Counted from the first letter of the stretch, positions 41,659 to 60,961 are shown. The stretch: 64,000 nt of DNA from a virus (IMGVR_UViG_3300027631_000002:64001-128000), one strand, 5' to 3'. Numbers and translations: made by a program. Notes: generated by a model from the letters alone, not told the origin.

Positions 41659-41880
41659 ATGAAAGAAATAAATTTAAAAACAAAATCGATCAATGTTGAA
41701 ACAAAGTCAAGACAACTTAAATGTGATTATTCTAGAGAGTTGGTTAAAGATCTTAATTCTTTCCATAATATTGATGTAGAGGCAGAATTAGTAAGACTAT
41801 TAGATAGTGAAATTAAGACATCAATTAGGAAACAAAGTAGAAAGAAAAAAATTGAAAATTTAACGAAACATACTGACTAA
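41659..41880 (+). CDS. mini-protein homologous to a segment of the T4-type major capsid protein
   Basis: VETKSRQLKCDYSRELVKDLNSFHNIDVEAELVRLLDSEI versus recalled T4 gp23 IEAKSRQLKAAYSIELAQDLRAVHGMDADAELSGILATEI. Confidence 0.8.
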   Translation: MKEINLKTKSINVETKSRQLKCDYSRELVKDLNSFHNIDVEAELVRLLDSEIKTSIRKQSRKKKIENLTKHTD

Positions 41881-41892
41881 TTTTCATATAAA
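41867..41892 (+). promoter_or_regulatory. putative middle-type promoter
   Basis: AACA-N16-TATAAA before the PolA-like gene. Confidence 0.45.
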
Positions 41893-41896
41893 AACT

Positions 41897-43129
41897 ATGT
41901 ATATTGAAAATGTAATAATCACTAAAGAAAGCTCTGAAAGCGTAGCAAAACGTATAGATGATAAGTTATTTTCTCTTCAATTTTTACCAGAATGTTTATA
42001 TGGAATATCAACTATAAAAACATTAGAATTTAATAACATTAAACTTAAAACAAACTATCTAATTGATATAGTACATAATTTAATATTAAAGTATTATTTC
42101 AAAAAAGAAAACAGATTCGCTCTAAATGCGACTATTCTAAAGGATAAGTATGGTTATCTTTATAACTATTATATCAACTACTTAGTTTCAAATGGTATTT
42201 TGATACTTAAAACAAACTATCAAAATGGAGTTACATCAAGAATATATGCCTTAGATGAAAATATATTTACTCATAAAATAAAAAGATATAAAAATTTAGA
42301 TAAAGTACTTCTAAAAAAGTATAAAAATAAATTTGTTGATATGATTCATATCAATGATATTTCTAAAGTGAGTTTAATTGAACCACTTATAAAGGAAAAA
42401 TTAGTTTCTGATCTATTCAGTGTTAAAATTGAATATGATAGAGCTATTTTCTTTCTAGATTCCTTAAAACATCAAGATATAGACATATATAACAGAAACA
42501 TATACTCTGTTGATTGTATCAATGATAAACATATCTTTTATCACTTTGATGATTATGGGAGAATGCATACAAACTACACTATTCTTAAATCATTTATTAG
42601 AAAAAACTGTCTATTGATAGATGGTGAAGAAACTTGTGAGATCGACATACCTAACAGCCAGCCATTATTTCTAACTAAAATAATTGACATGCACTCTAAT
42701 CTAGTAGATCAAAAGGAACTTCTCTTATTTAAAGAACTTACCATATCAGGAACATATTATCAATATGTTATGAATCAATTAGGTGAGAGTAATAAGAAAA
42801 AGGTTAAAGAGATGACTTATAAAGTTCTTTTTGGAAGAAATATTGCTACAAGTAAAGTAGATAAAAACTTTAAAAAACTGTTTCCAACAATTCATCAGTT
42901 TATTAAAAATTATAAAAAAGAAAATGGTGATTATAGAGTTCTGGCATATGACTTACAAAAAGCAGAATCGGATTTAGTCTTTAATACCGTTATCAAGAAA
43001 GTAATGCAATTTTATCCAGAGATAAAACTAATAACAATTCATGATAGTATTGTTATACCTAGAAAATATAAGGAAGAAGTGAATCAAATTTTTGAAATAG
43101 AGCTCAAAAAAGAGTTTAACATAAACTAA
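41897..43129 (+). CDS. minimal family-A polymerase / single-subunit RNAP-fold protein
   Basis: DDYGRMH, EIDIPNSQP (motif A), KVKEMTYKVLFG (motif B), TIHDSIV (motif C); no exonuclease motifs seen. Confidence 0.7.
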   Translation: MYIENVIITKESSESVAKRIDDKLFSLQFLPECLYGISTIKTLEFNNIKLKTNYLIDIVHNLILKYYFKKENRFALNATILKDKYGYLYNYYINYLVSNGILILKTNYQNGVTSRIYALDENIFTHKIKRYKNLDKVLLKKYKNKFVDMIHINDISKVSLIEPLIKEKLVSDLFSVKIEYDRAIFFLDSLKHQDIDIYNRNIYSVDCINDKHIFYHFDDYGRMHTNYTILKSFIRKNCLLIDGEETCEIDIPNSQPLFLTKIIDMHSNLVDQKELLLFKELTISGTYYQYVMNQLGESNKKKVKEMTYKVLFGRNIATSKVDKNFKKLFPTIHQFIKNYKKENGDYRVLAYDLQKAESDLVFNTVIKKVMQFYPEIKLITIHDSIVIPRKYKEEVNQIFEIELKKEFNIN

Positions 43130-43145
43130 AAATAATATATAAGAA

Positions 43146-43304
43146 ATGAAAACATTTTATTTAAGAATAAAGAATACGAAAGAAGTTTTAATAAAAACAT
43201 CTTGTTATAGTATCGAAGAAGCAGTTGATTACTTTTCAAAGGTTAAACAATTACCAAAAAAAGATTTAGTAAGTATATTCTTGATTACTGAATCGAAAAA
43301 ATAA
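43146..43304 (+). CDS. hypothetical protein (52 aa)
   Basis: Manual translation MKTFYLRIKNTKEVLIKTSCYSIEEAVDYFSKVKQLPKKDLVSIFLITESKK; TAATATATA at 43133-43141. Confidence 0.6.
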   Translation: MKTFYLRIKNTKEVLIKTSCYSIEEAVDYFSKVKQLPKKDLVSIFLITESKK

Positions 43305-43314
43305 TATATACTTT

Positions 43315-43854
43315 GTGAATTTAGAAAACCCAAATATATCTTATCTTATATTATCATCTGATGGTTTAGATGATATGACATCTGTTCTTTATGCTAAAGA
43401 TTATCAGATACTTCCCTTACAAACTTATTATAGAGAATCTTTTGATAATTCTGCTATGGGTTATAGTGATGTTGATAATGATACACTAAGAAAAGATGTT
43501 ATTTTTTTATTAAATCACTTTCATCAAGAATCTGCGATTATTAAATATAAAGGAGAAAAAAAACCAAGAAGAATCTATAGAACTGGTGCTGAAAAGTTAT
43601 TAGAAATCAATATGTTTAATACTGATTCTGAAAATGTTTCATACTTATATAGAGGATTATCGTTTTCTTTTGTGGAATCAAAGAGATATTGGGTTCCTAA
43701 ATCTAAGGAAGATTTCAAAGTAGGTATGATAGTTGAGTATTTCAATAATAATCAATGGTCTGAAAAAGTAGTTGAAAATCCTAATGATGAATGGGAAAGA
43801 ATGTATAAACTTCTTTTAAAATATGATAAAGTTAGAGTACAATCTATAAATTAA
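43315..43854 (+). CDS. hypothetical protein
   Basis: 179-aa ORF with GTG start; TAATATATA at 43302-43310; terminator downstream. Confidence 0.7.
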   Translation: MNLENPNISYLILSSDGLDDMTSVLYAKDYQILPLQTYYRESFDNSAMGYSDVDNDTLRKDVIFLLNHFHQESAIIKYKGEKKPRRIYRTGAEKLLEINMFNTDSENVSYLYRGLSFSFVESKRYWVPKSKEDFKVGMIVEYFNNNQWSEKVVENPNDEWERMYKLLLKYDKVRVQSIN

Positions 43855-43882
43855 AAAACCTCTCAAAATTTGAGAGGTTTTT
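43853..43882. terminator. bidirectional intrinsic terminator
   Basis: AAAAACCTCTCAAA-A-TTTGAGAGGTTTTT. Confidence 0.85.
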
Positions 43883-43883
43883 C

Positions 43884-44660
43884 TTATTTTATATGAAACC
43901 ACATAATTCTATTTTTTAGACTCGGTGTTTCTTTCATAAAGTATTTATCTTCATTAAGTGACTTTATTACAAATAGTCCATCTTCTTGACCACCATTTAT
44001 ATCGGCTCTTAAAACAATAAATTTATCTTTTGAAATTATATTTGATTCAATTAAAGTATAATTTGTTGAAATTATAAGTTGTTTATCTCCATAAAAATAT
44101 TTTGATATAGTTTCTGGATGTGCTAATAAAGTAGTTCCTGGACCACGTCTATTATTTACTGCAATATAATTACCACACATAAGTAATTTAGACATAATTT
44201 TTCTTTGACTATATTCAAAGTTTTCTCTAGAAGTTTTATCAGGATCATTAGTTAGAGTTAAATCAAATGATGACATTCCACTTTTTAAAACAGGTTGTCC
44301 TTGTGTAAATTTTTCCATATAGTTTAATAAATCTGTATGTAAATCTTCATAAGATGTAAAGGATGTTTCTTGTACAGTCATTGAAAATATTTTTGGACCA
44401 ATAGTCTGTGTAAAGTTACCGTCTAATATTGGAAGATCTACTCTACTGTTCCAAGTAGATTCTTCTTTTTCACCAGTTACAATATCAATGGCTAGTTCAC
44501 GATTTTTTGATTTTATCTTTAATTGTTCTTGAAGTGTATCTTCTTCTATAAAATCCATGTAAGATATAGTAGCAACAGAGCCACTATGTTGTTTTTCATA
44601 AAAATTACATAAGTATTTTATCTCCTTTTTTATTTCTTCTTCAGTTTTAGAAAGTATCAT
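43884..44660 (-). CDS. truncated major-capsid-protein paralogue (axial-domain region)
   Basis: LKSGM..FDL...RKIMSKLLMCGNYIAVNNRRGPGTTLLAHP versus recalled gp23 GKSGM...FDF...LLFQIDKEAVEIARQTGRGEGNFIIAS. Confidence 0.6.
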   Translation of the reverse strand: MILSKTEEEIKKEIKYLCNFYEKQHSGSVATISYMDFIEEDTLQEQLKIKSKNRELAIDIVTGEKEESTWNSRVDLPILDGNFTQTIGPKIFSMTVQETSFTSYEDLHTDLLNYMEKFTQGQPVLKSGMSSFDLTLTNDPDKTSRENFEYSQRKIMSKLLMCGNYIAVNNRRGPGTTLLAHPETISKYFYGDKQLIISTNYTLIESNIISKDKFIVLRADINGGQEDGLFVIKSLNEDKYFMKETPSLKNRIMWFHIK

Positions 44661-45375
44661 AGAAATTACTCATACCTATTTTTTGTGAACTCATGTTTAT
44701 AGATCTAACTAAATCTTCTTTAGATATTCCAACCATTTGTTGAAGAATCTTTTCATTTATTGGGTTACTATCAATTTTATTATGAAAGAAATGATAAACA
44801 CTTATTGGTAATACATTACTTGTTAAAAAGTTTTTAACTTTATGTGATAGAAACTCATCCGCACCACCTAGTCCAATAAATGATTCATTCCAACCACCTA
44901 TTTTTTGTATAGCAGCTTTTCTAAATATAGAAATTCCACTACATAAAGAAGTTTCTTTACCAGGTCTATTGATTTTTAGTATGTCTTCATATTGTAAATT
45001 CGCTTCATTAGGAAAAAGATCAACAATAGAATTATGTGGACTAACCATTTCATACTTATCAAGTGATTGAATAGACTCAATAAGCTTATTAGGATCTAAT
45101 ATAGTGTCTGCATCACCAAATATTACGATATTTGTATTTGATGATTTTAAACCAACATTATATCCCCAAGATTTATTATAAGGTTTGTCAGTTTTGATAA
45201 AGATGTGTTTACATTTTAATGATAAGTGTGATATTTTAGAGTGTTTATCTTGTTCAACAAGAATAACTTCTACATTTGCAAACCCATTTATCCAATCAAG
45301 AACTCGTCTAAGATTGTTTAGCCTATCTGGGCTGTGTCTATATCCAATTATATAGGTAAAAGAATGTGTATTCAT
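44647..45375 (-). CDS. glycosyltransferase (GT2/GT7-like, GT-A fold)
   Basis: VILVEQD, FNKSWGYNVG-like segment, FGDADT (DxD), IGGWNESFIGLGGAD. Confidence 0.85.
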   Translation of the reverse strand: MNTHSFTYIIGYRHSPDRLNNLRRVLDWINGFANVEVILVEQDKHSKISHLSLKCKHIFIKTDKPYNKSWGYNVGLKSSNTNIVIFGDADTILDPNKLIESIQSLDKYEMVSPHNSIVDLFPNEANLQYEDILKINRPGKETSLCSGISIFRKAAIQKIGGWNESFIGLGGADEFLSHKVKNFLTSNVLPISVYHFFHNKIDSNPINEKILQQMVGISKEDLVRSINMSSQKIGMSNFYDTF

Positions 45376-45416
45376 TACTAATTTATTATTTTTCTAATTA
45401 TATTGTATTTTACCAA

Positions 45417-45569
45417 TTAGTTTAGTGGATTTTGATAACCCTTTTGTTGAGTTATAAGTAACATCTGACTAGTTGATAAATCGTTGTGATTCCATCCCAT
45501 TTTTTTACAATATTCTACTAAAAATTTCTCTTTCAAAAAAGAAATTTCTTGTTTCGTTTTAGTTTTCAT
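45417..45569 (-). CDS. hypothetical protein (50 aa)
   Basis: Manual translation MKTKTKQEISFLKEKFLVEYCKKMGWNHNDLSTSQMLLITQQKGYQNPLN. Confidence 0.6.
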   Translation of the reverse strand: MKTKTKQEISFLKEKFLVEYCKKMGWNHNDLSTSQMLLITQQKGYQNPLN

Positions 45570-45601
45570 AACTTTGATTTTTATTTTATATATAATTTTA
45601 C

Positions 45602-45609
45602 TATCTTTG
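45602..45609 (+). promoter_or_regulatory. Bacteroidota-type -7 element
   Basis: TATCTTTG 4 nt before the ATG of the 2H phosphoesterase. Confidence 0.6.
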
Positions 45610-45613
45610 TCGT

Positions 45614-46192
45614 ATGGTATTTAAAGTAAGAGGTATATTAGATTTCAGTCCACAGGACAAAACTAAGAAGCATGCTAGTCAAGCTTCTTGGAAGAGAGTT
45701 GCTATGATCCGAACTGAATGTGAATTAGATAGATACTATGCTTGGTTTTTAAAGAAGAGATTTAGTCTTGAATTAAATAGTACCTTGAGAGGAACTCACG
45801 TTACTTTCATCAATGATAAAATGGACGCTAAAACATTTGAACAATTTGCACAAATCTTCAATGGTAAAGAAATTGATTTCTATGTTGAAACTGAGCCAAG
45901 AAGTAATGGTGAGCACTGGTGGTTAAGAGTTCACTGCCCAGAAGCAGAAAGTATTAGAGAAGTTATGGGTTTATCAAGAGAACCATTCTATGGAATGCAC
46001 CTAACATTAGGATATGCTCTAGTTAAATATCCAGAGGCTACTGCACTAAATGATAGTCCACTTGCAATTAAAGTAAGAAAAGATTATATAGAACATTCTA
46101 AATATATTTTAGAGTGTTGTAAAAGACACGAATTGATTTCTAATGAACCTAGAAAATCTTTAAGTGAACATGAAATAATAGAGTTTAAATAA
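45614..46192 (+). CDS. 2H phosphoesterase superfamily protein
   Basis: Two H-x-T motifs, GTHVTFI and GMHLTLG, about 70 aa apart. Confidence 0.75.
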   Translation: MVFKVRGILDFSPQDKTKKHASQASWKRVAMIRTECELDRYYAWFLKKRFSLELNSTLRGTHVTFINDKMDAKTFEQFAQIFNGKEIDFYVETEPRSNGEHWWLRVHCPEAESIREVMGLSREPFYGMHLTLGYALVKYPEATALNDSPLAIKVRKDYIEHSKYILECCKRHELISNEPRKSLSEHEIIEFK

Positions 46193-46218
46193 AAAAGAGG
46201 ACAAATGTCCTCTTTTTT
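46191..46218. terminator. bidirectional intrinsic terminator
   Basis: AAAAAAGAGGACA-AA-TGTCCTCTTTTTT. Confidence 0.85.
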
Positions 46219-47200
46219 ATGTTCTTGATTGATACCACATTGATTTTGGTTCTTCTTTAGGTTCATCTAATTGTTTTGGTTCCTCCTCTTTAATTTCCTC
46301 TTTCTTAGGTACTTCTCTTGGTATATCTGCAATATTATAACGAAACCATTTACTATTTGGATTTCTATAATCTGGTGAACCTCTAAGTGTTTCAACATCA
46401 TCATACAAGTGATTTACTTTTATACCATATTTTAATGCGTGTATACATCTTTGAAAGTTCCTAGAATCACCTAATAGTGAAAATATCTTCCAAATTTCTC
46501 CTTCAATTTGATCATCTATTAGACTTGGTAGTAATTTTTTAAACCTAAATGCACTATTTCTATCCGAGAATATGCCATAATGATACATATTTAGTGCTTC
46601 TCTACCACCCGTCCACATAGGTCTTGGATCTGATTGAGGAAGTGTTAAACTAATTTGCAAATCTGCATTATCATCATAAAGTTCTTGTAGTGTGTATTGT
46701 TTTGGTGGATCTTCTTGGTCCCATTCATCTGGATTATTCCAATTTTCTAACCCATCATCCCAGTTAGACATATTTATTTTAAATGAAAATAAAGGAACAT
46801 CCCATCCTGGTAAAGATCTACCTAATTTTAATTTTGTTTCTTCTAATGGTTCAAAATAAAATTGTATCGTAAAGTATAATTCTCTTTCTGCATCACTCCA
46901 AAGATCAAGCATTTCTTCTTCTGATATATCTTCATATCTTGTATTGATATCACCTATACTTGATCCAGATTTTCTTGTATTTAGAATAAACTTTGCCTTA
47001 GGTTTCGTAAATTTAACCTTTCTATCTATATCACTATAGTTTTTAACGAGTTCTATATTATAAACACCCCATTCTTTTTCGGAACCATAATCTTTTAAAT
47101 TTCTACCTTTTTCTACTTTATGAGGCATATTCATAAATCTTTGACCGGCATCTCTATAGACTTTTGGTGTTAGTTCTTCGTAAGTTTTAATCCATTTCAT
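46217..47200 (-). CDS. leader-bearing hypothetical protein
   Basis: Start moved to MKWIKTYEEL at 47200; TAATATATA 5 nt upstream. Confidence 0.75.
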   Translation of the reverse strand: MKWIKTYEELTPKVYRDAGQRFMNMPHKVEKGRNLKDYGSEKEWGVYNIELVKNYSDIDRKVKFTKPKAKFILNTRKSGSSIGDINTRYEDISEEEMLDLWSDAERELYFTIQFYFEPLEETKLKLGRSLPGWDVPLFSFKINMSNWDDGLENWNNPDEWDQEDPPKQYTLQELYDDNADLQISLTLPQSDPRPMWTGGREALNMYHYGIFSDRNSAFRFKKLLPSLIDDQIEGEIWKIFSLLGDSRNFQRCIHALKYGIKVNHLYDDVETLRGSPDYRNPNSKWFRYNIADIPREVPKKEEIKEEEPKQLDEPKEEPKSMWYQSRT

Positions 47201-47204
47201 AAAG

Positions 47205-47213
47205 TATATATTA
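47205..47213 (-). promoter_or_regulatory. putative late promoter TAATATATA
   Basis: Upstream of MKWIKTYEEL. Confidence 0.6.
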
Positions 47214-47220
47214 TTTTTTA

Positions 47221-47247
47221 AACTCACATTTATATTCATCATATAAT
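47221..47247 (+). promoter_or_regulatory. putative middle-type promoter
   Basis: AACT-N17-TATAAT. Confidence 0.5.
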
Positions 47248-47251
47248 AAAT

Positions 47252-47431
47252 ATGAGAGAACTATCATTAGAAGAAAGAGTACAACTATTTTGTAATAAGT
47301 ATAAAAAACATATTTCTTACGGTTTCGACTTGACACACGAAGATTTAGATAAACATGATATTACTAGAAATATTGAAACTAATTTAAAAAAGGATATATA
47401 ACTAGAAAATAGTAAATTATTAAATGAGTGA
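47252..47431 (+). CDS. hypothetical protein (59 aa)
   Basis: Manual translation MRELSLEERVQLFCNKYKKH...ENSKLLNE; overlaps the next start; AACT-N17-TATAAT upstream. Confidence 0.6.
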
Positions 47432-47921
47432 TATTACAACAATTGGTTATTTAGAAGATCTAGTCGAACAAGTTAAATCTTTGGATACTACTGAATTATC
47501 TGATAAATTAAGTAAAGAAGAAAAAAAAATAAAACAAGTAGTTGAAGAACAAAAAGTTTATTTTTGGATAAGACTTTATTTAAAGGAAGAAGATTCTAAC
47601 TTAGTGATAGGAGATGATATTTCTATCAAATGGACTCCAACTGGTGAAGAATTAAAAACAAAGTTTATCTGTTATGGTAAAACTGGACTACAAAAAGATT
47701 ATGATGAGGAAATAGTAAACTATAATTCAGAAGATGATAAGAAAGTTCTTTGTTTAATGGTTGATGAAGGTCAAGTCAATTATAATGAAGATATTCCTTT
47801 TGTTAGAACTTTATTTAAAGTTGGTCGTCATTTTGAATATCAATTAGTTAAAAGATCAGAATTACTTTTTGTCAATGTTAGAAATGGTATGATTTTAGAC
47901 TACTTCGACTGCGATTTTTGA
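47424..47921 (+). CDS. hypothetical protein
   Basis: 165-aa ORF. Confidence 0.75.
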   Translation: MSDITTIGYLEDLVEQVKSLDTTELSDKLSKEEKKIKQVVEEQKVYFWIRLYLKEEDSNLVIGDDISIKWTPTGEELKTKFICYGKTGLQKDYDEEIVNYNSEDDKKVLCLMVDEGQVNYNEDIPFVRTLFKVGRHFEYQLVKRSELLFVNVRNGMILDYFDCDF

Positions 47922-47924
47922 TTT

Positions 47925-48434
47925 ATGGAAACAGATTCAATAGAATATTTATTATTATCTTACTTTAATGAACTAATTTGGGTGGATCAAAATCCAGTTG
48001 AATTTACTATTAGTGAGACTTTTAAAGAAAATGGAAATATAAGAACTTCAAATAAAGTAGAAGTTTATCAATTACAAGATTTGTTAGTAACTTCTTTGGA
48101 AGATACTAACACTTTTTTGTTTGAACTAATGTCTGATTGCCAGTCAAAACAACTAAATTTTTATCCAAAGAATATAGTATCTAGATTATTCAATTTAAAG
48201 TCAAATAAACGACTTAAAAAAGAATTAGATGGTCTTACATCAAATAACTGGATAATTACTTCTAATCATATATATGATGTTTATATGAAAGATTGTGGAT
48301 ATAATGTTTACTTATCTAATGAGTTTGAAAATCAAATTGTAATTGGTGACAAATCATCTAAATTGATATTAAACAAAAATCTAAAAGAATTCTATTTGGA
48401 TAAGTCTAATATTAGAGTAATAAAGTTAAAATAA
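47925..48434 (+). CDS. hypothetical protein
   Basis: 169-aa ORF followed by a terminator. Confidence 0.7.
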   Translation: METDSIEYLLLSYFNELIWVDQNPVEFTISETFKENGNIRTSNKVEVYQLQDLLVTSLEDTNTFLFELMSDCQSKQLNFYPKNIVSRLFNLKSNKRLKKELDGLTSNNWIITSNHIYDVYMKDCGYNVYLSNEFENQIVIGDKSSKLILNKNLKEFYLDKSNIRVIKLK

Positions 48435-48464
48435 AAAAAGTCGAGATAAATCTCGACTTTTTTT
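48433..48464. terminator. bidirectional intrinsic terminator
   Basis: AAAAAAAGTCGAGA-TAAA-TCTCGACTTTTTTT. Confidence 0.85.
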
Positions 48465-51068: not shown

Positions 51069-52843
51069 AAAATCTAAAATATATAAAATTATTTGAGGCA
51101 TTTGATGCAAGAACACTTAATGTAACTTTAAAAAATATTAAAGGATCAGAAGATAAGAAAAACTTTTTATCAAATCTAAAAACAATATGTGATAAATTTG
51201 ATATACCCGAATCTAAACTTAGTGATGACTTATTTACTTATTTACCTTTTAACAAAGCGTTGAAGTTCAACAATGTTGTTTCTGATGACCAACCTTGTGA
51301 TGCAGTAGGTGAATTTGTTCATGGTGAAAGATGTGACAATGGTAAAGTAAGAAGACCTTGGGGTAGAGGATTTAGAGTTGTTGATTGTGGTACTTGTAAA
51401 GGTACTGGTATCAAACCTAAAAGATCAGATTTATCTTTACTTAAATTTTGGTTTAATTCAGAAGGAAAATACGTTGCTACGACTGCAGTAGATGGTATTT
51501 ACAGAGCATCAACTAACACTGCGGCAACAGCATTCTCACCAAATATTACTGATTATGATGTAGTTAAAAGAATTCCCAAAACACAGATAAAAAATCAATT
51601 AGAAACTGGTGATATAATATCAGTAGATCTTGTAGATAATCATTGGAATGGAACCGCTTATAATGTTGAAACACAAATTGTTGCTTATGTTTATAAAGAA
51701 GTAAGATATGGTAATGAGATTAAAGTATTTGCTATTCAAAATAGAAGAGGTAGATATCCTAGACCTTGGAATAGTGACTGGAGAAGTATTGGTAATGAGT
51801 CTTGGACTCTTACAACTTCTAAATGTAATAATATAAACCTATTAAAAGCTAAAGCTAATGCAGGTGGTCAGGATCCTTATGGATATAATACATTATTTGA
51901 TATGTCTAACTTCCGTGTTAGACCAGTTCAAGTTACTTCTACATTGAAAGATGCAAACTTTGCAATTATATTAGATTTTTCTAAATTAGATAAGTTGGGG
52001 GTTGTAAAGAAAACAGAAGTAAAATCTGGTAGAACAGAATCAAGAGAAGGTGCGACTGCATTTATATCTAACGATGATATAAAGAAAGCAAATATTAAAA
52101 GATACTTTGATAAAATTGCGACTAGTTTTAAACTAACTGGAGAATTACAAGATGTTAGTAAGTTTACTAGTATGGCTACTAGAGTTCTTGGTGGTAGATC
52201 TTGTGTGTACTTCTTAAATAATTCTGCAAGTACTAATGAAATGGATACTCTATCAACTATAGCAGGATATATCTTTAAGATGATTAAAAAAATAAAAACT
52301 GCAGAAAAGGCAGATAATCAATCTACAGAAGATGGATTCGTAGGAACTGCAGTTGAAGATTTAAAACAGGATAGAGATTTTATAGATATTATTACTATTA
52401 TTAACGATAAATATAAAAGTTTATTAGATAATTCAATTAAAAAAGTAGATAGTACAACTAGATTCCTTAAACAACTTAAAGATAAAATTAAAGCAGATGC
52501 TAGTGAAGATTGGATGGATAAAGATCTTAGAATACTATCCAATATAGATAACTTATCTGCAGAAATAAACAAATATATTTCATCAATCAAAGTAGATACT
52601 TTAGAAGATGTTGAATTTTTAATACAAGAAATTTACTCTATAAAAAGTTTATTAAGATCTGATAGAATGTCTATGACAAACTTAAATGGTTTATTTGATA
52701 GAATGCGTCCAGGTAGTTATTATAACGAAGTTCGTTATTTATATCCAGCACTTACAGATAGAAGAACTTATTATGGTAATATAAACAACGGTATTCAATC
52801 TATAATTACAATTATAAGAAAAAAACTAGCAATGTTAGACTAA
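51065..52843 (+). CDS. leader-bearing protein with DnaJ-type zinc finger
   Basis: Starts MKNLKYIKLFEAF; C...CDNGKV...CGTCKGTG. Confidence 0.75.
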   Translation: MKNLKYIKLFEAFDARTLNVTLKNIKGSEDKKNFLSNLKTICDKFDIPESKLSDDLFTYLPFNKALKFNNVVSDDQPCDAVGEFVHGERCDNGKVRRPWGRGFRVVDCGTCKGTGIKPKRSDLSLLKFWFNSEGKYVATTAVDGIYRASTNTAATAFSPNITDYDVVKRIPKTQIKNQLETGDIISVDLVDNHWNGTAYNVETQIVAYVYKEVRYGNEIKVFAIQNRRGRYPRPWNSDWRSIGNESWTLTTSKCNNINLLKAKANAGGQDPYGYNTLFDMSNFRVRPVQVTSTLKDANFAIILDFSKLDKLGVVKKTEVKSGRTESREGATAFISNDDIKKANIKRYFDKIATSFKLTGELQDVSKFTSMATRVLGGRSCVYFLNNSASTNEMDTLSTIAGYIFKMIKKIKTAEKADNQSTEDGFVGTAVEDLKQDRDFIDIITIINDKYKSLLDNSIKKVDSTTRFLKQLKDKIKADASEDWMDKDLRILSNIDNLSAEINKYISSIKVDTLEDVEFLIQEIYSIKSLLRSDRMSMTNLNGLFDRMRPGSYYNEVRYLYPALTDRRTYYGNINNGIQSIITIIRKKLAMLD

Positions 52844-53842: not shown

Positions 53843-53846
53843 AAAT

Positions 53847-53855
53847 TATATATTA
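53847..53855 (-). promoter_or_regulatory. putative late promoter TAATATATA
   Basis: Upstream of gp25. Confidence 0.65.
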
Positions 53856-53873
53856 AAAATTTATATATACTTA

Positions 53874-54245
53874 ATGAGATATTTAAAGAAATTTAATGAA
53901 GGTCAGTCACCATCTGATATAATAGATAGTATAGAGGGCATTTTAGTCGATTTAATGGATAATAATATGGTAGAAATAACTGATAAGTCTTGGGCTTTAG
54001 AGGTTTCTATTAAATTACCGGTCGATATTGTAGATACTGATAATAGGAGAGACTTTATATATAATGAGATTGATTTTGAATCAATTAAAGATAAAGTTTT
54101 AATGCTATTGGATTATATGAAGAATAAAGGATATAAATATAGAATGTCTTGTAAGATTAAGGGAAGTAGTACTTTCTTTTCTGTTAAAAGAGATACTATT
54201 ATTGATTTACCAGTAACAGAAGTAAAAATCATTTTTGATAAATAA
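53874..54245 (+). CDS. leader-bearing hypothetical protein
   Basis: Starts MRYLKKFNE. Confidence 0.75.
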   Translation: MRYLKKFNEGQSPSDIIDSIEGILVDLMDNNMVEITDKSWALEVSIKLPVDIVDTDNRRDFIYNEIDFESIKDKVLMLLDYMKNKGYKYRMSCKIKGSSTFFSVKRDTIIDLPVTEVKIIFDK

Positions 54246-54275
54246 TATATAAAATAATAAAAATAAAAATTTAAA

Positions 54276-54635
54276 ATGAAATATTTAAAAAGATTTAATG
54301 AAAGTATTTTAGATGATGTTAGATCTGAAGTAGATAAAACTCGTTCTAGTATTAGTTCTAAGTTTGGACGTTTTTCTAATGTAGAAGATGAATTCAATGA
54401 TGATAGTTTTGAAGTAACTGGTAAATTAGAAATACAAGGTGGTTCATCAAAAACACCAGTTATTAAAATTAGAAGTATGAATAAAACTATAGATGGTACT
54501 TCGGTATTATCTGGTGATATAATGGCTTGGGATTTAACTAAATTTGACGGACAAGAAGTTACTATAAAAGGAACTACTAAAAATGGTGAAAAGCCTTCTT
54601 TTATGAATCCAATTATGGTAAATGAAATACAATAA
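54276..54635 (+). CDS. leader-bearing protein, possible OB-fold
   Basis: Starts MKYLKRFNESILD; beta-rich EVTGKL...FDGQEVTIKG. Confidence 0.7.
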   Translation: MKYLKRFNESILDDVRSEVDKTRSSISSKFGRFSNVEDEFNDDSFEVTGKLEIQGGSSKTPVIKIRSMNKTIDGTSVLSGDIMAWDLTKFDGQEVTIKGTTKNGEKPSFMNPIMVNEIQ

Positions 54636-54664
54636 AAAAAACCCAGTTTTAAACTGGGTTTTTT
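54634..54664. terminator. bidirectional intrinsic terminator
   Basis: AAAAAACCCAGTTT-T-AAACTGGGTTTTTT. Confidence 0.85.
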
Positions 54665-55620
54665 AATATATCTCTAAATTTTCCTATAATTGTTATACCA
54701 AGTATTAAAGGATCTGTTGCTCCTTCTAATTTAGATGAATAATCCGCAATTATATAAGCAGTTTCAAATAATTTATTTACACTTTCTCTTTTATCTGTTA
54801 TACACCAATCAATAAAAGGTTTTCCTAATAGTTTAATCATTACATCAATTTTCTCCGCTCCAAAGTTTGACACTAAAAAGTGATAAGTTTTTTCAAAGTC
54901 TAAATCTTCATATAAAGTATTATAAAGTTCTAACTTCACTTTTGCAGAAACATTACCTGTTCCATCACTTATTGCTCCAGTATCTAAATAACTCTGTACT
55001 TCAACTAATACAGAACGAAAGTCTGGAAACTTTTTAGTAATAATATTTACTAAATCTTCTTTTGGTATCTCGGATTCCTCTTTAGGAAGAATTTCATTGA
55101 TAATCTTTTTATAAATCTCTTGTTTAAGGAACTTTTCTTCTTCTACTCCTTGACAGTCAAATCCAATTTGTTTAATTCTTGATTTTAATCCATCTGATAT
55201 TTTATTGATGTGGTTCGTTGTAATGATAAAACGAACATTTTTGTTGTATCTTTCTATAAAAGCTTTAAATGCGTCTTGGAAGTTTGTAGAAACTCTCTCA
55301 AACTCATCTAAGAATACATATTTAATATCTGAATTAGTATCCATCATTGGAGTAAACTTACAGAAGTTATCGATTTCAGTTCTAAGAACATCAATTGATG
55401 TATCCATTGAACAGTTCAATTCTAAGTAAGGAGTTTCTTTTGAGTATCTACCGATTAGTATTCTAGCTAAACTTGTTTTACCGGTTCCGTAGTGACCGTG
55501 GAATATATAGTGTTGGTTTACACCATTTTCTAATTCTTTTCTAATTCTTGGAAGTAATATAATGTCGTCGATAGTTTTTGGACGCCATTTTTCCCATAAT
55601 AATAATTTATTTACTGACAT
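54649..55620 (-). CDS. gp44: sliding clamp loader subunit (RFC-like AAA+)
   Basis: WEKWRPKTIDD, GHYGTGKT, LNCS, LDEFE, FIITTN, KSR, FPDFR. Confidence 0.93.
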   Translation of the reverse strand: MSVNKLLLWEKWRPKTIDDIILLPRIRKELENGVNQHYIFHGHYGTGKTSLARILIGRYSKETPYLELNCSMDTSIDVLRTEIDNFCKFTPMMDTNSDIKYVFLDEFERVSTNFQDAFKAFIERYNKNVRFIITTNHINKISDGLKSRIKQIGFDCQGVEEEKFLKQEIYKKIINEILPKEESEIPKEDLVNIITKKFPDFRSVLVEVQSYLDTGAISDGTGNVSAKVKLELYNTLYEDLDFEKTYHFLVSNFGAEKIDVMIKLLGKPFIDWCITDKRESVNKLFETAYIIADYSSKLEGATDPLILGITIIGKFRDILKNPV

Positions 55621-55641
55621 ATTTTATCTCATTTTCTCATG

Positions 55642-55668
55642 AGTATATCAAAAATTATCAAGAAAGTT
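55642..55668 (-). promoter_or_regulatory. putative middle-type promoter
   Basis: AACT-N17-TATACT before gp44. Confidence 0.5.
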
Positions 55669-56228
55669 TATACTTTTGGACGCCCAATTAGATATTCTTC
55701 TTCTGTTATAGTATGGTCTGGAAGAGTTCTTGTATAAACACCTTGTCTTATCCAGTTTATCTCTGAATGAGGAAAAATTTTACTAACAGTTTGTTTATCA
55801 CAGTATTTACAACCTGCACCTATAAGTATCTCAGCAGGTCTTCCTGAAACTTCAATCCAAAATCCTTCTTTATGCAATAGGACAATCAATTGTTTCATTA
55901 GTTCTTTCCTAGCTTCTTTTGTTCCATCATGACCCCAACCAGAAATCTTGTGTCCATTAGACTCTCTAGAAAATATAACAACATCGGCTTGTGGATCTTT
56001 ATCTATATCAACTGCTGTCCAGAAAGTTAAGTCTGGATCATTTACAACTGCATCAGGACTTGATATTCTAACATGTCCACCAAGTGGTTTATATGCCAAA
56101 TCAACAATCTCCCATATTTCTTTTTTAAGCTTTTTTCTATCTTCCATAGAAAGTTCAACCCATTTATTCTTATCATATAAATCGGAAAAAGTAAAGTCTT
56201 CAAATAATTTAATGTAATTCATTGTCAC
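55668..56228 (-). CDS. leader-bearing protein, possible GNAT-like fold
   Basis: MNYIKLFEDF; AYKPLGG, GWGHDG, EVSG. The fold call is tentative. Confidence 0.6.
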   Translation of the reverse strand: MTMNYIKLFEDFTFSDLYDKNKWVELSMEDRKKLKKEIWEIVDLAYKPLGGHVRISSPDAVVNDPDLTFWTAVDIDKDPQADVVIFSRESNGHKISGWGHDGTKEARKELMKQLIVLLHKEGFWIEVSGRPAEILIGAGCKYCDKQTVSKIFPHSEINWIRQGVYTRTLPDHTITEEEYLIGRPKV

Positions 56229-57006
56229 TCCATTTTTTTAATAAGTCTAATGCTATTCTTCTTCTACGTCCAATTGGTATAGTAATATCAGTTCTATCTA
56301 TTTCTTTTCCATGTTTTTTAAAAAAATCACTTCTACCATTACTATCAATACCTAATTCAATAAAATCATCATCAGTTAGTATAGGTTCACTTTTATATGG
56401 TTTTGGTTCTTTAGGTTCTATAGATTTTATATGTTTTTTATGATGACAAGGTGACTCTGTCCATACTTGTAATGTTTCTCCTTCTTCCTTAGACATTTTA
56501 AGTAGTTCATCATATGTTAATGTTCCAACTACACCACCATCAATTAACATTTGTTGATATTCTGTGATTGCTTTCATAAATCCATCTTTATCTTCGTAAT
56601 AATCTGGAAATTCTTCAACTTTTTTACCTAAGAAATCTTTCACGGTTCTTTCTGGGGAGAACCAAGTACTTCCTAATCCACCGTTTCTTAATTCTTTATT
56701 AAAACCAAAGATAGCACCTTCTTTAGGGATAATATCAAATGCAGTTCCATACCAACCAATCGAACTATCTGGATTTGGTCTAAAATACATATGTACTGAT
56801 TTTAAAGGATGTGGAATTCCCAAGTTAGCATAATTATTTATAAATTCAATGTAATCTTCATCAATTGAATTTCCAGAACTTACTGTACGTAATTTAGGAT
56901 CATCAATATATTCATCTTTATCAATTTTAACTCCTCTTACTAATGTTCCATTAAATACATTGGGAAATTCATTATTAAAATCTTCAAATATTTTTAAGTA
57001 CTTCAT
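56209..57006 (-). CDS. leader-bearing protein, possible ADP-ribosyltransferase-like fold
   Basis: Starts MKYLKIFEDF; TLVRGV and a later SVHMYF. The fold call is tentative. Confidence 0.6.
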   Translation of the reverse strand: MKYLKIFEDFNNEFPNVFNGTLVRGVKIDKDEYIDDPKLRTVSSGNSIDEDYIEFINNYANLGIPHPLKSVHMYFRPNPDSSIGWYGTAFDIIPKEGAIFGFNKELRNGGLGSTWFSPERTVKDFLGKKVEEFPDYYEDKDGFMKAITEYQQMLIDGGVVGTLTYDELLKMSKEEGETLQVWTESPCHHKKHIKSIEPKEPKPYKSEPILTDDDFIELGIDSNGRSDFFKKHGKEIDRTDITIPIGRRRRIALDLLKKWSDNELH

Positions 57007-57011
57007 ATATC

Positions 57012-57051
57012 TATATATTAAGTTTAGAGACTTATATTTTTTTAATATATA
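57012..57051. promoter_or_regulatory. divergent pair of putative late promoters
   Basis: TAATATATA on minus (57012-57020) and on plus (57043-57051). Confidence 0.65.
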
Positions 57052-57055
57052 CTTT

Positions 57056-57961
57056 ATGTCAAAAAATATAACAACAGAAGATTTTATAAAAATGTCAATT
57101 GAATTATTTACGGATAAGTATAATTATTCAAAGACTAATTATGTTAAAATGAAAGATAAGGTTATTATAATATGTAATGTACATAAAATTGAATTTTTAC
57201 AAACACCTGATAAACATTTATCTTCCAAAACAGGAGGTTGTCCTAAATGTAATACAATAGGGAAGGGTAGATTAACTAATAAACTTTTCATAGAAAAATC
57301 AAATTTAATACATTTAAACAAATATGACTATTCTATAACAGAATATATTAAATCAAATGAAAAAGTTAAAATATCTTGTAAAAAACATGGACCTTTTGAG
57401 ATTAATGCAAACTCACACCTAAATGGTAGAGGTTGTTCTAAGTGTGGTGGTAATTATAAATATAAAATTATTGAGTTATTGGATACATTTAATAATATGT
57501 ATAGAGGATATACATATGATTTTAGCAATTATAAAAATATTAAAAGTAGAATATTAGTTAAATGTCCTAAACATTCTCAATTTGAAACAAGTACTGAATT
57601 ATTACTAAATGGATATGGTTGTAGTTCTTGTGGTAAGAAAAGTACTGGTGAAGAAAAAGTATCAGAGGTATTGAATAAGAACAATATAATATATATAAAA
57701 CAAAAGTCTTTTGATGGATGTGTTTTCAAAAATAAAATGCAATTTGATTTTTTTATTCCAGAATTTAATACTTGTATAGAGTATGATGGTATACAACATT
57801 TTGAACCAATTAAATATTTTGGTGGTATTTATTCATTAGAGAAACAAAAAATTAAGGATAGTATTAAAGATAATTTTTGTAAAAAAAATAATATTAAATT
57901 GATAAGAATTCCATATTATGAATTTGATAACATAGAAAAAATATTAAATTATTCATTATGA
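57056..57961 (+). CDS. free-standing putative homing endonuclease (3 zinc-ribbon repeats plus Vsr/PD-(D/E)xK-like nuclease)
   Basis: Three C.xH..F.....HL...GC.xC units; FDFFIP...IEYDGIQHF...IRIPY; start moved to 57056. Confidence 0.85.
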   Translation: MSKNITTEDFIKMSIELFTDKYNYSKTNYVKMKDKVIIICNVHKIEFLQTPDKHLSSKTGGCPKCNTIGKGRLTNKLFIEKSNLIHLNKYDYSITEYIKSNEKVKISCKKHGPFEINANSHLNGRGCSKCGGNYKYKIIELLDTFNNMYRGYTYDFSNYKNIKSRILVKCPKHSQFETSTELLLNGYGCSSCGKKSTGEEKVSEVLNKNNIIYIKQKSFDGCVFKNKMQFDFFIPEFNTCIEYDGIQHFEPIKYFGGIYSLEKQKIKDSIKDNFCKKNNIKLIRIPYYEFDNIEKILNYSL

Positions 57962-58851
57962 TAGGAGATAGGTATAATATGGATGATGTCTTCTTTCGTG
58001 ATCTAACCATCTGCGTTTTAGATACACTAGAAGGACAAGTAAAGTGGATAAATAGATTTACCTCAGGTGATAAATTTGTAGAAGTTCCTTTCTACTATTC
58101 AATGACTGGTGATGAAAGATTTTTGTTAGATACATTTACTGATGATATAGTTTCTGGTGATTCTACTGGAAATGGTAGGTATCTTGAATTAAATACTGAC
58201 ATTATACCAAGAGGACATTTAACACTTAAATCATTTGCAATTCGTTCAGATGAATTTGCAAATCCAAATGTTTGGTTAAGAACAGTTGTTGAGAATGAAG
58301 TTGAAATAAAAAAGGTTTTAGGAAGAATTAGAGCAGTTCCGGTAACTGTTAGTTATGATTTGGTAATCACTTTATCAAGTGAGATAGATACTTTTAAATG
58401 TAGTCAGGCTATTATGGATACATTATGGATATATAAATTCATGTATTTTGAACATAATTTTATGAATATTGATGCAGTTATTTTAATGCCTGATTCAAAT
58501 TCTATTGAAATGACAAGAGATAAGAATTTAACATCTGATAATTCAATAAAAATGACAGTATCATTTGAAGTACAAACATACTACCCTGCTTTTAGAAGAG
58601 ATAGAGCAGATTTCCCTGGTTATACAAAAGAAAATGGTGGAATGTCAGATCTAAATGGATATGAAATAGAGGGTGGATATTCTGACTTTTTTAATAATGT
58701 TCGTGGTGGGACTACTGCAGGAGAGCCAAATAAGGGATTTTTTGTTGCACCTAAAAGAACACGTTGGTTTAATAATATTCTACGAGCTAGAGAACAAAGT
58801 TCTAGAAGATATGATAATCCTAATGGAGATTTGGGAAATAAAAACAAATAA
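57958..58851 (+). CDS. gp15: tail sheath stabiliser / tail terminator
   Basis: FRDLTICVLD...TSGDKFVEVPFYY versus recalled T4 gp15 ESGDKFIRVPITY; C-terminal FEVQTY. Confidence 0.75.
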   Translation: MIGDRYNMDDVFFRDLTICVLDTLEGQVKWINRFTSGDKFVEVPFYYSMTGDERFLLDTFTDDIVSGDSTGNGRYLELNTDIIPRGHLTLKSFAIRSDEFANPNVWLRTVVENEVEIKKVLGRIRAVPVTVSYDLVITLSSEIDTFKCSQAIMDTLWIYKFMYFEHNFMNIDAVILMPDSNSIEMTRDKNLTSDNSIKMTVSFEVQTYYPAFRRDRADFPGYTKENGGMSDLNGYEIEGGYSDFFNNVRGGTTAGEPNKGFFVAPKRTRWFNNILRAREQSSRRYDNPNGDLGNKNK

Positions 58852-58884
58852 AACAAAAAAAGGAAAAAAATGACTTTTTTACCT

Positions 58885-58893
58885 TAATATATA
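58885..58893 (+). promoter_or_regulatory. putative late promoter TAATATATA
   Basis: Upstream of 58924. Confidence 0.6.
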
Positions 58894-58923
58894 GTAATAT
58901 AAAAAAAATAATAAATTAGAAAT

Positions 58924-60207
58924 ATGAAGAATCTTAAACTTGAATTGTTTAACTTCAAAAAGGATCTTTCTCTTGATCAAGAAGAAATATCTACAATTGT
59001 AGAAGGACATATGAATGCTTGTAATCAACATTCAGAGAAAACTATAATTACTTCTCTTAATGAAAGATTAAAACCTTATACCTATGATAAAGGTGTTAAG
59101 GTATTATTAGAAGGTCTTAATGATGATATGGCTGCATTTGAATTACTATACGAATTGAAAAATTTATATGGTGTTCTTAATACAAGAAATCAAGGAGAAC
59201 TTTACAGACAACCTATAAACGTTTTATTACAAACAATTAATCTTGAATCAGATCAAGATAGAATGTCAAAAATTCTTAATGAATTAGCTATTTATGACTG
59301 GGTTCCAGAAATTAAAGTATTTGTTCATAACTTAACAAAATCTCCAGAAAAAAGATCTAATCTTTTAAGTGGTGGTAGTGGTGAATCAATCTTTACTGTT
59401 GTAGAACAAGTTGAAGAAGGACATGTTGCTTTGGTTAGAGATTCTTGGTTTTTATTGACTGAAAATTCAATTGAAAAAACATTATTAGAAAATCATATTA
59501 AAGATGAGACAGCATTAAGAAGTTTAAGAACTTTGGAAACTGCAATGAAATACTCAACTGTTACTGAAAGTAGAATTAATTTTAGAATTTCAGAATATCT
59601 AACAATTGGTTTATCAGTTGGTAAAAAAAGTGGATTATTCATCAATGATGACGAATTAAATGAAGAAACTACATTAGAAAGTTTGTTTAACTCTCCAATT
59701 ATTCCTATCGTTAACAAAAACTTTTATCCAGTTTTATTAGAAACTTCTAAAAACTTAGATAAATTTGTTGAATTAGATGTTGTAAAAAGAGTTAATAACT
59801 TAGTAAATCCTTATTTAGAAGTATTTGCTTTCAATTACAAAAATAATACATTTGTTTACAGATGTGATGAAAGATATGGTAATTCATTCTTTAAATATGA
59901 ATCTGCTTTAGAATTAGTAAATGAGGTAAGAAATGAACTAAACTATGACTTAACTTACTTCTACGAAAACAAACTAAGTAAAGAATTAATTGTTAAAAGA
60001 AAACTTGAAGATAAAGAAAGAGAAATCACTCTTAAATTAGAAGATGTTGAATTTAACATTGATAAAGTTAAAGGTTCTTTAAAAATGATTGGTGAATCAG
60101 AAGTTTTAACAACTGCTTTATCTAACTTAGAAAAAAGACAAGCTAATCTTTCTACTGAATTAAGTGCAGTTAAAGAATTACAATATAAAGAAAGAATAAA
60201 AGGATAA
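58924..60207 (+). CDS. late protein with C-terminal coiled coil (possible prohead core component)
   Basis: Late promoter upstream, many L-x-E sites, C-terminal heptads. Confidence 0.55.
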   Translation: MKNLKLELFNFKKDLSLDQEEISTIVEGHMNACNQHSEKTIITSLNERLKPYTYDKGVKVLLEGLNDDMAAFELLYELKNLYGVLNTRNQGELYRQPINVLLQTINLESDQDRMSKILNELAIYDWVPEIKVFVHNLTKSPEKRSNLLSGGSGESIFTVVEQVEEGHVALVRDSWFLLTENSIEKTLLENHIKDETALRSLRTLETAMKYSTVTESRINFRISEYLTIGLSVGKKSGLFINDDELNEETTLESLFNSPIIPIVNKNFYPVLLETSKNLDKFVELDVVKRVNNLVNPYLEVFAFNYKNNTFVYRCDERYGNSFFKYESALELVNEVRNELNYDLTYFYENKLSKELIVKRKLEDKEREITLKLEDVEFNIDKVKGSLKMIGESEVLTTALSNLEKRQANLSTELSAVKELQYKERIKG

Positions 60208-60279
60208 GATAACTAAACAAGTTATTATTCATAGCATTGCTGATTTCTAATACCTTCGGGTCATGACAATCATATAAAT

Positions 60280-60317
60280 AAAAAAAATACTCAAACGAAA
60301 GTTTGAGTATTTTTTTT
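60280..60317 (+). terminator. intrinsic terminator
   Basis: AAAAAAATACTCAAAC-GAAA-GTTTGAGTATTTTTTT. Confidence 0.9.
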
Positions 60318-60330
60318 AATATATACATAT

Positions 60331-60381
60331 ATGTATTCACTTTATGTTTTAAAAGACCCAGATAGTCTTATTATTAAATAA
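60331..60381 (+). pseudogene. truncated GIY-YIG homing endonuclease N-terminus
   Basis: MYSLYVLKDPDSLIIK* matches the IYxLxDP start of phage GIY-YIG nucleases; has its own TAATATATA promoter. Confidence 0.5.
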
Positions 60382-60405
60382 TCAAGAAAAGGTTATTTTT
60401 TATTA

Positions 60406-60431
60406 AACTTTTATAATCATAATTATATAAC
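60406..60431 (+). promoter_or_regulatory. putative middle-type promoter
   Basis: AACT-N16-TATAAC before gp55. Confidence 0.5.
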
Positions 60432-60489
60432 ATGAAACCATTAAAAGGTAATTAAAGAGTTTACTCTTATAAAAAATGATTTAACGGTT

Positions 60490-60855
60490 ATTTACTTAAA
60501 CAATAAAGAGCTCTATATAGAGATCATAGTGTCAAAAGCACAAGGACGACTAACAAGAAATGCGGAGAAAATGCTAGAGTTACTAGCAAAAAAGACAATA
60601 AGAAAAATGAGATACTGGTCAAATGATGACAAGTTAGATTGCTACCAAAGTGGTTTACTAGATATGTTTCAAAACTGGTTCAATTTTAATGAAGACAAAT
60701 CAATCAATGCATTTGCTTATTTTACAGAAATCTTTAAAAGAGGATTGGCTAAAGGATGGAATGACCTTTATAAAAAGAAAGGAGATAATGAACATTTAAT
60801 TAAACTTATCTCAATAAATGGTGCCAACGATGGAAATGGATTACACTCAATTTAA
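60490..60855 (+). CDS. gp55: late transcription sigma factor (gp55-like); start codon unresolved
   Basis: In-frame IYLNNKELYIEII upstream of the GTG at 60529; DCYQSGLLDMFQNWFNFNEDKSINAFAYFT parallels gp55 region 2. Confidence 0.85.
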   Translation: MYLNNKELYIEIIVSKAQGRLTRNAEKMLELLAKKTIRKMRYWSNDDKLDCYQSGLLDMFQNWFNFNEDKSINAFAYFTEIFKRGLAKGWNDLYKKKGDNEHLIKLISINGANDGNGLHSI

Positions 60856-60961
60856 TATACAAACATTTGATTTAGTCTCAGATCCGGGTTTTTCTACTGC
60901 AAATTTTTTTAATAAAAATTATATAAGAATGAAAAGAATAAGAAACTTATTTAATTTTTAG
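60836..60961 (+). CDS. 41-aa mini-protein carrying a prohead-protease-like motif
   Basis: Manual translation MDYTQFNIQTFDLVSDPGFSTANFFNKNYIRMKRIRNLFNF; ATG overlaps the sigma 3' end. Confidence 0.6.
   Translation: MDYTQFNIQTFDLVSDPGFSTANFFNKNYIRMKRIRNLFNF

Follow-up and report, generated by a model that had tools for sequence, protein, structure and literature searches.

Micro-proteins resembling segments of phage head proteins carry a contig-wide C-terminal tail in a Mahaphage-type virus

Why would a virus encode small, separate proteins that each resemble one piece of its own head proteins and that end in the same few residues? The question is raised by IMGVR_UViG_3300027631_000002:64001-128000 (hereafter the window), a 64-kb stretch covering bases 64001-128000 of a 179,626-bp viral contig with a CheckV completeness of 30%. 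A first-pass annotation had pointed to three open reading frames (ORFs) in the window, here called ORF-A, ORF-B and ORF-C, as stand-alone pieces of T4-type head proteins joined into one system by a common C-terminal tag, and all three were found at the positions and in the frames that it gave (Table 1). ORF-A and ORF-C each combine a segment resembling a core phage protein with a C-terminal tail that recurs across the contig, and ORF-B is a separate thing. The window has a G+C content of 27%, and its source is a fragment of a roughly 600-kb "megaphage" of the Mahaphage group of huge phages. The closest genomes for the late sigma, capsid and other genes are those of the uncultured phages LR745206 and LR756502 (635-642 kb); more distant kin are genomes of 636-735 kb and the Prevotella Lak phages.

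ORF-A is, as had been claimed, a segment of a major capsid protein. Its residues 1-58 align to positions 131-188 of the 376 in the Pfam model PF07068 Gp23 (E 3.7e-12; 46.8 bits, cut-off 24.4), PHROG 138 'major head protein' is matched at E 6e-12, and residues 258-304 of T4 gp23, which form a P-domain strand and the spine helix, are identical to it at 22 of 47 positions (counted by hand). As no other part of the Gp23 profile is covered, ORF-A is a fragment and not a capsid protein; it is without the full HK97 fold (P-domain, A-domain, E-loop) of a shell subunit of the Gp23 family. BLASTP gives no similarity between ORF-A and the phage's own capsid protein, in which the ORF-A family profile picks out a collinear segment (residues 309-369) weakly (E 0.0013). 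By these comparisons canonical gp23 is closer to ORF-A than the phage's own capsid protein is, which would fit a mimic aimed at a reader of a generic gp23 surface.

Homologues of ORF-A form 74 protein clusters of 64-81 amino acids (aa), all intact and all matching Gp23, and the indels among them stay in frame. The gene keeps its position, within a block of five genes, in six close and three distant relatives, and the order of the block is the same in all of these genomes; ORF-B is only 29-35% identical in the distant three. It is under purifying selection, with a ratio of non-synonymous to synonymous substitution (dN/dS) of 0.23, compared to 0.03-0.07 for its neighbours. ORF-A is a selected gene, not debris. 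The best-conserved part of the family is the last 12 residues, and the tail core is at least 90% invariant over the 74 clusters; the invariant DNA beneath it is explained by amino-acid conservation and codon bias. Distant homologues, with a shortened helix, retain the strand as well as a tail that reads R-x-x-[KS]-I-x-x-I-[FY].

The 443-aa and 410-aa genes that flank ORF-A matched no known family or structure. The latter (41897-43129, plus strand) adjoins ORF-A throughout the clade, and by eye its G-R-M-H-T, D-I-P-N-S-Q-P and T-I-H-D-S recall motifs of family-A/T7-type polymerases, a likeness unconfirmed by Pfam, PHROG, PDB or atlas matches. A perfect hairpin (A5-C-C-C-A-T / A-T-G-G-G-T5) with a T-run, resembling an intrinsic terminator and conserved in relatives, lies between the 443-aa gene and ORF-A (41620-41648), so that ORF-A may have its own transcript start.

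ORF-C had been likened to the prohead protease, and the likeness was recovered. BLASTP aligns its residues 10-22 with residues 147-159 of the contig's own protease (identity at 8 of 13 positions, similarity at all 13; pairwise E 1e-4), and the protease is its best match in the contig proteome (E 0.006). The aligned segment falls on the protease strand D-x-V-x-x-P (D-x-V-x-D-P-G-F), which itself aligns with T4 gp21, and is the part of ORF-C that relatives conserve. Searches of Pfam, PHROG and further profiles gave no match to ORF-C, and no protease domain with catalytic residues is present. The candidate explanation that ORF-C is unrelated to the protease was overturned by the direct comparison with the contig's own protease ORF. 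That ORF-C would carry a piece of the prohead protease is supported by this match, which is short and moderately significant. Close relatives keep ORF-C with their indels in frame, and its homologues in LR756502 and LR745206 end in the canonical tail. The view that the mini-ORFs are conserved and selected, and not decaying, therefore holds for ORF-C, through its kept frame, as it does for ORF-A.

The start of ORF-C overlaps the end of a gene for a gp55-like late sigma factor. A reading of ORF-C as the C-terminus of gp55, reached by a +1 frameshift, was rejected, as distant relatives are without ORF-C and no slippery site is conserved. The gp55-like proteins end alike across the clade, even where ORF-C is missing, so ORF-C is not a detached gp55 C-terminus. 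Their ends (LR756502, LR756504, LR756501, LR756500 and Lak-C1) follow the pattern S-[IL]-[DHN]...G-x-G-hydrophobic-[HY]-[SN]-hydrophobic, and this conserved C-terminus may be the clade's equivalent of the clamp-binding end of T4 gp55. The Lak-C1 gene has in-frame TAG codons, as expected for Lak-C1 recoding. In the window, the region upstream (60448-60528) has no ATG, GTG or TTG where the relatives start (M-L-Y-M-Y-L-N-N-K-E-L-Y), and the relatives start further upstream; the conserved N-terminal residues are in frame, are preceded by non-canonical codons only, and would be dropped by the first standard start, the GTG at 60529.

The two mini-ORFs share the strict octamer R-x-K-[KR]-I-x-N-L, as had been noticed in the first pass, and in the contig this octamer is found in these two only. 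Both are K/R-rich members of a much wider class. Among 232 greedily chosen ATG-ORFs of the contig, 22 have the motif R-x-x-[KR]-[IL]-x-x-[IL] within their last 16 residues, compared to 7 matches at 51,793 interior positions, one match at the N-termini and none in 196 shadow ORFs. This is a 78-fold C-terminal enrichment (Fisher p 1e-25), and a proposed check against shuffled tails gave a mean of 0.67 matches and a maximum of 4 (1000 shuffles). The carriers make up about one in ten of the contig's genes, and all 22 encode at most 180 aa, as do 127 of the genes in total. The tag is thus not specific to head-protein mimics. The same tail class is present in 6 of 116 genes in 100 kb of LR745206 and in 7 of 116 genes in 100 kb of the more distant LR756504.

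The consensus of the tail is hydrophobic-R-[DE]-x-K-[IL]-x-x-[IL]-L-K, with a general form R-x-x-K-[IL]-x-x-[IL]-[LF]; after the core (more broadly, hydrophobic-R-[DE/K]-x-K-[IL]-x-x-[IL]-[LF]) come up to six further residues and then the stop codon. The regions upstream of the motif are unrelated among carriers. Codons for the same tail residue vary between sites, as does the downstream DNA, showing that the tail is conserved at the protein level, and the same differences rule out a by-product of a DNA element such as a promoter, terminator or repeat. Enriched on unrelated proteins and conserved as protein, the common ending belongs to the generic class of shared C-terminal docking tails, and is a real tail of the kind that had been expected of a docking handle. 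On a helical wheel the invariant Arg lies in the hydrophobic face, which suggests a docking helix and not a membrane anchor.

Fragments of gp23 other than ORF-A also carry the tail. When the complete genomes of the relatives LR745206 and LR756502 were scanned in six frames for Gp23, the only matches were the capsid gene, the homologue of ORF-B and four small ORFs. The four are the ORF-A homologue (61 aa), two ORFs of 67 aa and 70 aa with the spine helix only (profile 164-194, E about 1e-3), and one of 75 aa with C-terminal strands (profile 308-356, E 2e-4). Between them they represent three separate regions of gp23, and every one of the four finishes with the tail itself or with a form that has S at position 4; chance is an unlikely cause (base rate about 17% of small genes), with the caveats of a small sample and of a motif broadened by the S form. 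A 50-aa ORF ending in the tail lies directly upstream of the 75-aa fragment (LR745206, about 255 kb; L041:516-668), suggesting that carriers cluster.

Another carrier, of 78 aa, displays the PolB motif A (D-F-x-S-L-Y-P-S) and, going by weak profile matches, is probably a PolB motif-A fragment. The PolB gene of the contig starts just before motif B and its product ends in I-M-D-I-F-N-G-F; as no exonuclease domain was found in the 180-kb contig either, the polymerase is split here, and the 78-aa ORF may be either an extra fragment or a working piece of the split polymerase. One more carrier is a stand-alone, complete GIY-YIG catalytic domain of 80 aa that has the tail at its end and is without a DNA-binding domain.

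ORF-B is a different case. It had been taken for a further capsid piece; its homology to gp23 stood and its status as a piece did not, since the HK97 fold spans the whole protein. ORF-B itself has no match in profile libraries. Its close homologues number 67 and are equally long, and by profile search its family comprises 118 clusters (50% identity), all in the range of about 230-270 aa. Pfam Gp23 is matched by 28 of 86 diverse family members (best E 2.1e-9), and hhalign of the family with the phage's own capsid protein gave a probability of 97.7% and E 1.3e-12 (ORF-B 140-234 to capsid 407-518). An AlphaFold2 model from a shallow alignment had a pLDDT of 38.8, and a diverse alignment resolved the fold (pLDDT 92.7). 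In VIA-align comparisons, this model aligned over residues 1-258 at Z 15.2 and 13.3 to T4 gp23 and 13.1 to gp24 (root-mean-square deviation 3.8 over 199 residues), with encapsulins and HK97 at Z 10-12, and the top Foldseek matches were likewise T4 gp23/gp24 (probability 1.0). On the predicted structure, ORF-B is a gp23-type fold reduced to its minimum, lacking the insertion domain of gp23/gp24.

The C-terminal tail is absent from ORF-B, and the sequence RELAIDIV, which had been read as a looser internal version of the tag, is the end of the spine helix and includes R54, the sole invariant column of the family alignment. Profiles of ORF-A and ORF-B gave no significant match to each other; the register places the ORF-A tail on the ORF-B spine-helix end. 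ORF-B has a dN/dS of 0.30 (neighbours 0.03-0.07) and is 28-30% identical to the syntenic gene of LR745206/LR756502, compared to 72-74% for the capsid protein and 84-86% for gp55. The head genes are about 27 kb away from ORF-B, whose start is overlapped by 14 nucleotides by the 3′ end of a glycosyltransferase gene, an arrangement kept in loci of distant relatives (L023, L024 and L034). Fast-evolving, tail-less and co-oriented with the glycosyltransferase, ORF-B is a separate thing from the tail-tagged fragments, and the proposal that the three ORFs form one system fails on this complete HK97-fold protein.

T4 has, next to its major capsid gene, the gene of another HK97-fold protein of gp23 type, gp24, and this suggests a possible role for ORF-B. 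The fold of ORF-B is complete and closest to gp23 and gp24, its family is found throughout the clade, and it is the sole other gp23-type fold detected in the complete LR745206 and LR756502 genomes; as no full-length gp24-like gene is detectable in either, a vertex role is possible. It is nonetheless doubtful that ORF-B is the pentameric capsid vertex protein and functional equivalent of T4 gp24, and not an accessory or a decoy. At 258 aa (gp24 has 427 aa) it is without the insertion domain, it lies outside the head cluster and is coupled to a glycosyltransferase, and it has diverged at about three times the rate of the capsid protein; the identity values and the dN/dS given above count against this role too. 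Fast divergence and a site away from the head genes call for caution in regarding ORF-B as a component of the virion shell.

Table 1. Features of the window and of the contig. Plain positions are those of the window; the prefix G000 marks contig coordinates, and the features so marked lie outside the window.
Feature	Position	Strand	Basis or remark
Conserved block: 443-aa gene, ORF-A, 410-aa gene, 52-aa gene, 179-aa gene	40302..43854	+	Gene order
ORF-A, 73-aa micro-protein: gp23 P-domain strand, spine helix and C-terminal tail	41659..41880	+	Pfam, PHROG and T4 gp23 matches
Tail core of ORF-A, R-K-K-K-I-E-N-L	41839..41862	+	Fits contig-wide tail motif
ORF-B, 258 aa, compact complete HK97-fold paralogue of gp23/gp24 (predicted), no tail	43884..44660	-	Model and profile homology
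Family-2 glycosyltransferase	44647..45375	-	Pfam Glycos_transf_2 E 1.9e-6; PHROG 1721 E 3e-13
Tail-bearing gene, 164 aa	48463..48957	-	Motif in last 16 residues; no Pfam family
gp55-like late sigma factor gene, start codon uncertain	60529..60855	+	PHROG 234 E 8.7e-7; six-frame match 60490-60744
ORF-C, 41-aa micro-protein	60836..60961	+	Overlaps last 20 nt of gp55-like gene
Protease-like segment of ORF-C, residues 10-22	60863..60901	+	BLASTP to own prohead-protease ORF
Tail core of ORF-C, R-M-K-R-I-R-N-L	60926..60949	+	Fits tail motif; conserved in relatives
ClpC/ClpA-like two-ring AAA+ protein, 686 aa	G000:30208-32268, outside window		Starts at first ATPase module, no N-domain
GIY-YIG domain ORF, 80 aa, tail carrier	G000:51401-51643		Pfam E 4.6e-20
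78-aa tail carrier, probable PolB motif-A fragment	G000:55471-55707		Pfam DNA_pol_B E 0.039; PHROG E 0.017
Prohead protease, N-terminal part of 736-aa ORF	G000:132430 onward, outside window		Peptidase_S80 E 4.6e-6; S77 weak
Major capsid protein, 568 aa	G000:134987-136375, outside window		Pfam Gp23 E 1.8e-29
Candidate gp45-type sliding clamp, 260 aa, strongly conserved	G000:157939-158721, outside window		Next to PolB and IF3-like gene
PolB gene	G000:159462-160940		Starts just before motif B

What, then, might ORF-A and ORF-C do? Our preferred reading, held tentatively and at somewhat less than even confidence, is that they belong to a Mahaphage-type class of proteins in which a core-protein segment is fused to a docking tail and acts as a competitive mimic. 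The segments displayed would be a gp23-type capsid strand with the spine helix, the D-x-V-x-D-P-G-F strand of the protease and, probably, PolB motif A. The tail would be a docking handle read by one common putative partner, and the fragment would mimic the matching surface on the full-length protein, so occupying a factor that normally binds the capsid protein, the protease or the polymerase, either a host sensor or an assembly partner. Candidate readers of the tail are the ClpC-like unfoldase without an N-domain, the clamp-like ORF beside PolB, and the interior of the capsid. Lit and CapRel sense the capsid protein, and CBASS has been linked to the prohead protease; for the assembly-partner option, the gp23 part covered by ORF-A is presumably also the one in which T4 head-length mutations cluster. 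Both the capsid protein and DNA polymerase are triggers of bacterial sensors (bioRxiv 10.64898/2026.01.04.697583). Docking, mimicry and any target are what we infer, and a role of the tail-tagged fragments as decoys or assembly modulators is plausible. The observation made in the first pass is confirmed, and its interpretation is partly supported.

Several points weigh against the mimic reading. The likeness between ORF-C and the protease spans 13 residues only, and its E of 0.006 falls within the range of other chance-looking matches in the contig-proteome search. More distant genomes are without ORF-C, the ORF-A homologue in the distant relative L023 has lost the tail, and the profile matches of the 78-aa PolB-like fragment are weak. 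The proposed scan of carriers for the proteins they mimic did yield the PolB-like ORF, and among 30 further tail carriers scanned with Pfam no family was recognised. With most carriers not recognisable as fragments, and one of them a complete GIY-YIG domain, the tail is a general device and the fragments are a minority of its users.

The tail could instead be an encapsidation or scaffold-docking signal, with the carriers being internal head or core proteins that sit on the inner procapsid face and are packaged, and with the fragments modulating assembly or size. C-terminal ends of scaffolds and cargo do dock on HK97-fold shells, as with encapsulin cargo peptides, the HK97 protease C-terminus and P22-type scaffold. 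An amphipathic basic C-terminal helix on many small unrelated proteins, some of them derived from head proteins, is consistent with such a signal, and the contig also encodes the encapsulin-sized, HK97-fold ORF-B with its encapsulin matches. In encapsulins a short C-terminal peptide on diverse cargo docks inside a compact HK97-fold shell; ORF-B is by sequence a gp23 relative, however, and the tail consensus is unlike known cargo peptides. In SaPI CpmB, P4 Sid and scaffold docking helices, small proteins with a short helix engage an HK97-fold capsid or scaffold and alter assembly. Those proteins are not fragments of a capsid protein, whereas ORF-A is a literal piece of gp23 and is encoded by the phage itself. 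The GIY-YIG domain and the PolB-like fragment are not obvious head cargo, and no prohead-protease cleavage motif was found beside the tail, leaving an encapsidation signal unlikely overall.

Less likely still is a link to the phage's ClpC-like AAA+ unfoldase, with the tail as its adaptor or degron handle, by which carriers would be timed for removal or would deliver bound targets for unfolding. Shared C-terminal tethering tails are known on Clp adaptors and substrates (the SspB XB peptide, the MuA C-terminus), and the phage does have a two-ring Clp-type ATPase (Pfam AAA_2 E 4.6e-64). This enzyme is without the N-domain, the usual docking site of ClpC/ClpA adaptors, and there is no co-variation, the tail consensus being the same across lineages. 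The ClpC-like protein also has a V-G-F loop resembling a ClpP-docking loop.

A formal parallel is found in the clamp-binding tails of T4 gp43, gp55 and gp33 and the acidic tails of T7 gp2.5 and gp4, where likewise one short peptide with one reader ends several unrelated phage proteins. In its spacing, [DE]-x-K-[IL]-x-x-[IL]-[LF] agrees with the PIP-box pattern, the PolB C-terminus fits R-x-x-x-I-x-x-I-F, ORF-C sits at the end of the gp55-like gene, and a 260-aa clamp-like ORF adjoins PolB. The sole support for the identity of this ORF is a language-model lead of 0.94 (to a cluster with 10% gp45-slide_C members), and that identity is unproven: searches with Pfam gp45 models gave no match or a weak one in a nucleotidyltransferase, PDB and PHROG searches were empty, and hhalign to T4 gp45 was not significant. 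A tail-bearing ORF of 62-69 aa overlaps the 3′ end of the clamp candidate, as ORF-C overlaps gp55. The tail here is basic and aliphatic, whereas those of T4 are acidic and aromatic (S-L-D-F-L-[FY]), so the T4-type motif is lacking; the gp55-like proteins keep their own C-terminus throughout the clade, and distant relatives lack ORF-C. The clamp would also have unusually many clients, at about 10% of the genes, most of which encode tiny proteins. A PIP-like, clamp-binding peptide is accordingly a poor prospect.

Equally slight is the chance that the micro-proteins are a tagged library of epitope decoys, in which they would show the motifs that sensors read in core phage proteins, namely the capsid spine region, the prohead-protease strand and PolB motif A, the tail would pass the sensor to a phage machine (e.g., the ClpC-like unfoldase) or sequester it, and ORF-B would be a whole-fold decoy for Avs7-type sensors. 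Host sensors do read short capsid motifs or the whole HK97 fold, as in Lit (Gol peptide), the motif-level sensing of CapRel and the fold-level sensing of Avs7/8/10, and a decoy for such sensors would be expected to look like just such a fragment, or compact fold, in free form. ORF-A covers gp23 258-304 and lies outside the Gol region (residues about 93-122).

Least probable of all is that the mini-ORFs are functionless remnants, pieces of conserved target genes that stayed open after gene fragmentation or after being carried along by homing elements. Such elements are directed at conserved motifs in essential genes, PolB is split, a GIY-YIG domain is among the carriers and ORF-C is in close relatives only. 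Yet all 74 clusters of ORF-A are intact, and over deep divergence the gene has a fixed place, frame-keeping indels, selective constraint and a near-invariant tail; the tails differ at the DNA level and so are not copies of one element end. This reading is already disfavoured for ORF-A.

The T4-type late promoter TATAAATA, considered as a clue to timing, was not enriched (91 found, 113 expected). Literature searches on megaphage C-terminal motifs or capsid-fragment decoys returned nothing relevant and no phage-encoded capsid-fragment decoy. Phages are known to have shared docking tails, and also molecular mimics; the combination of a core-protein fragment with a genome-wide tail looks new, and we know of no other micro-proteins that are literal pieces of a phage's own capsid protein or protease fused to such a tail. 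If the fragments are decoys, they would represent a new kind of counter-defence against sensors that read the core phage proteome, and if they are assembly factors, they would bear on how a capsid that holds over 600 kb of DNA is built. With ORF-B comes a family of compact gp23-like proteins, about 118 clusters in all, which present profile libraries do not recognise. The tail itself brings together, as a single functional set, about 10% of a proteome that is otherwise without annotation, and is potentially a first handle on dozens of genes.

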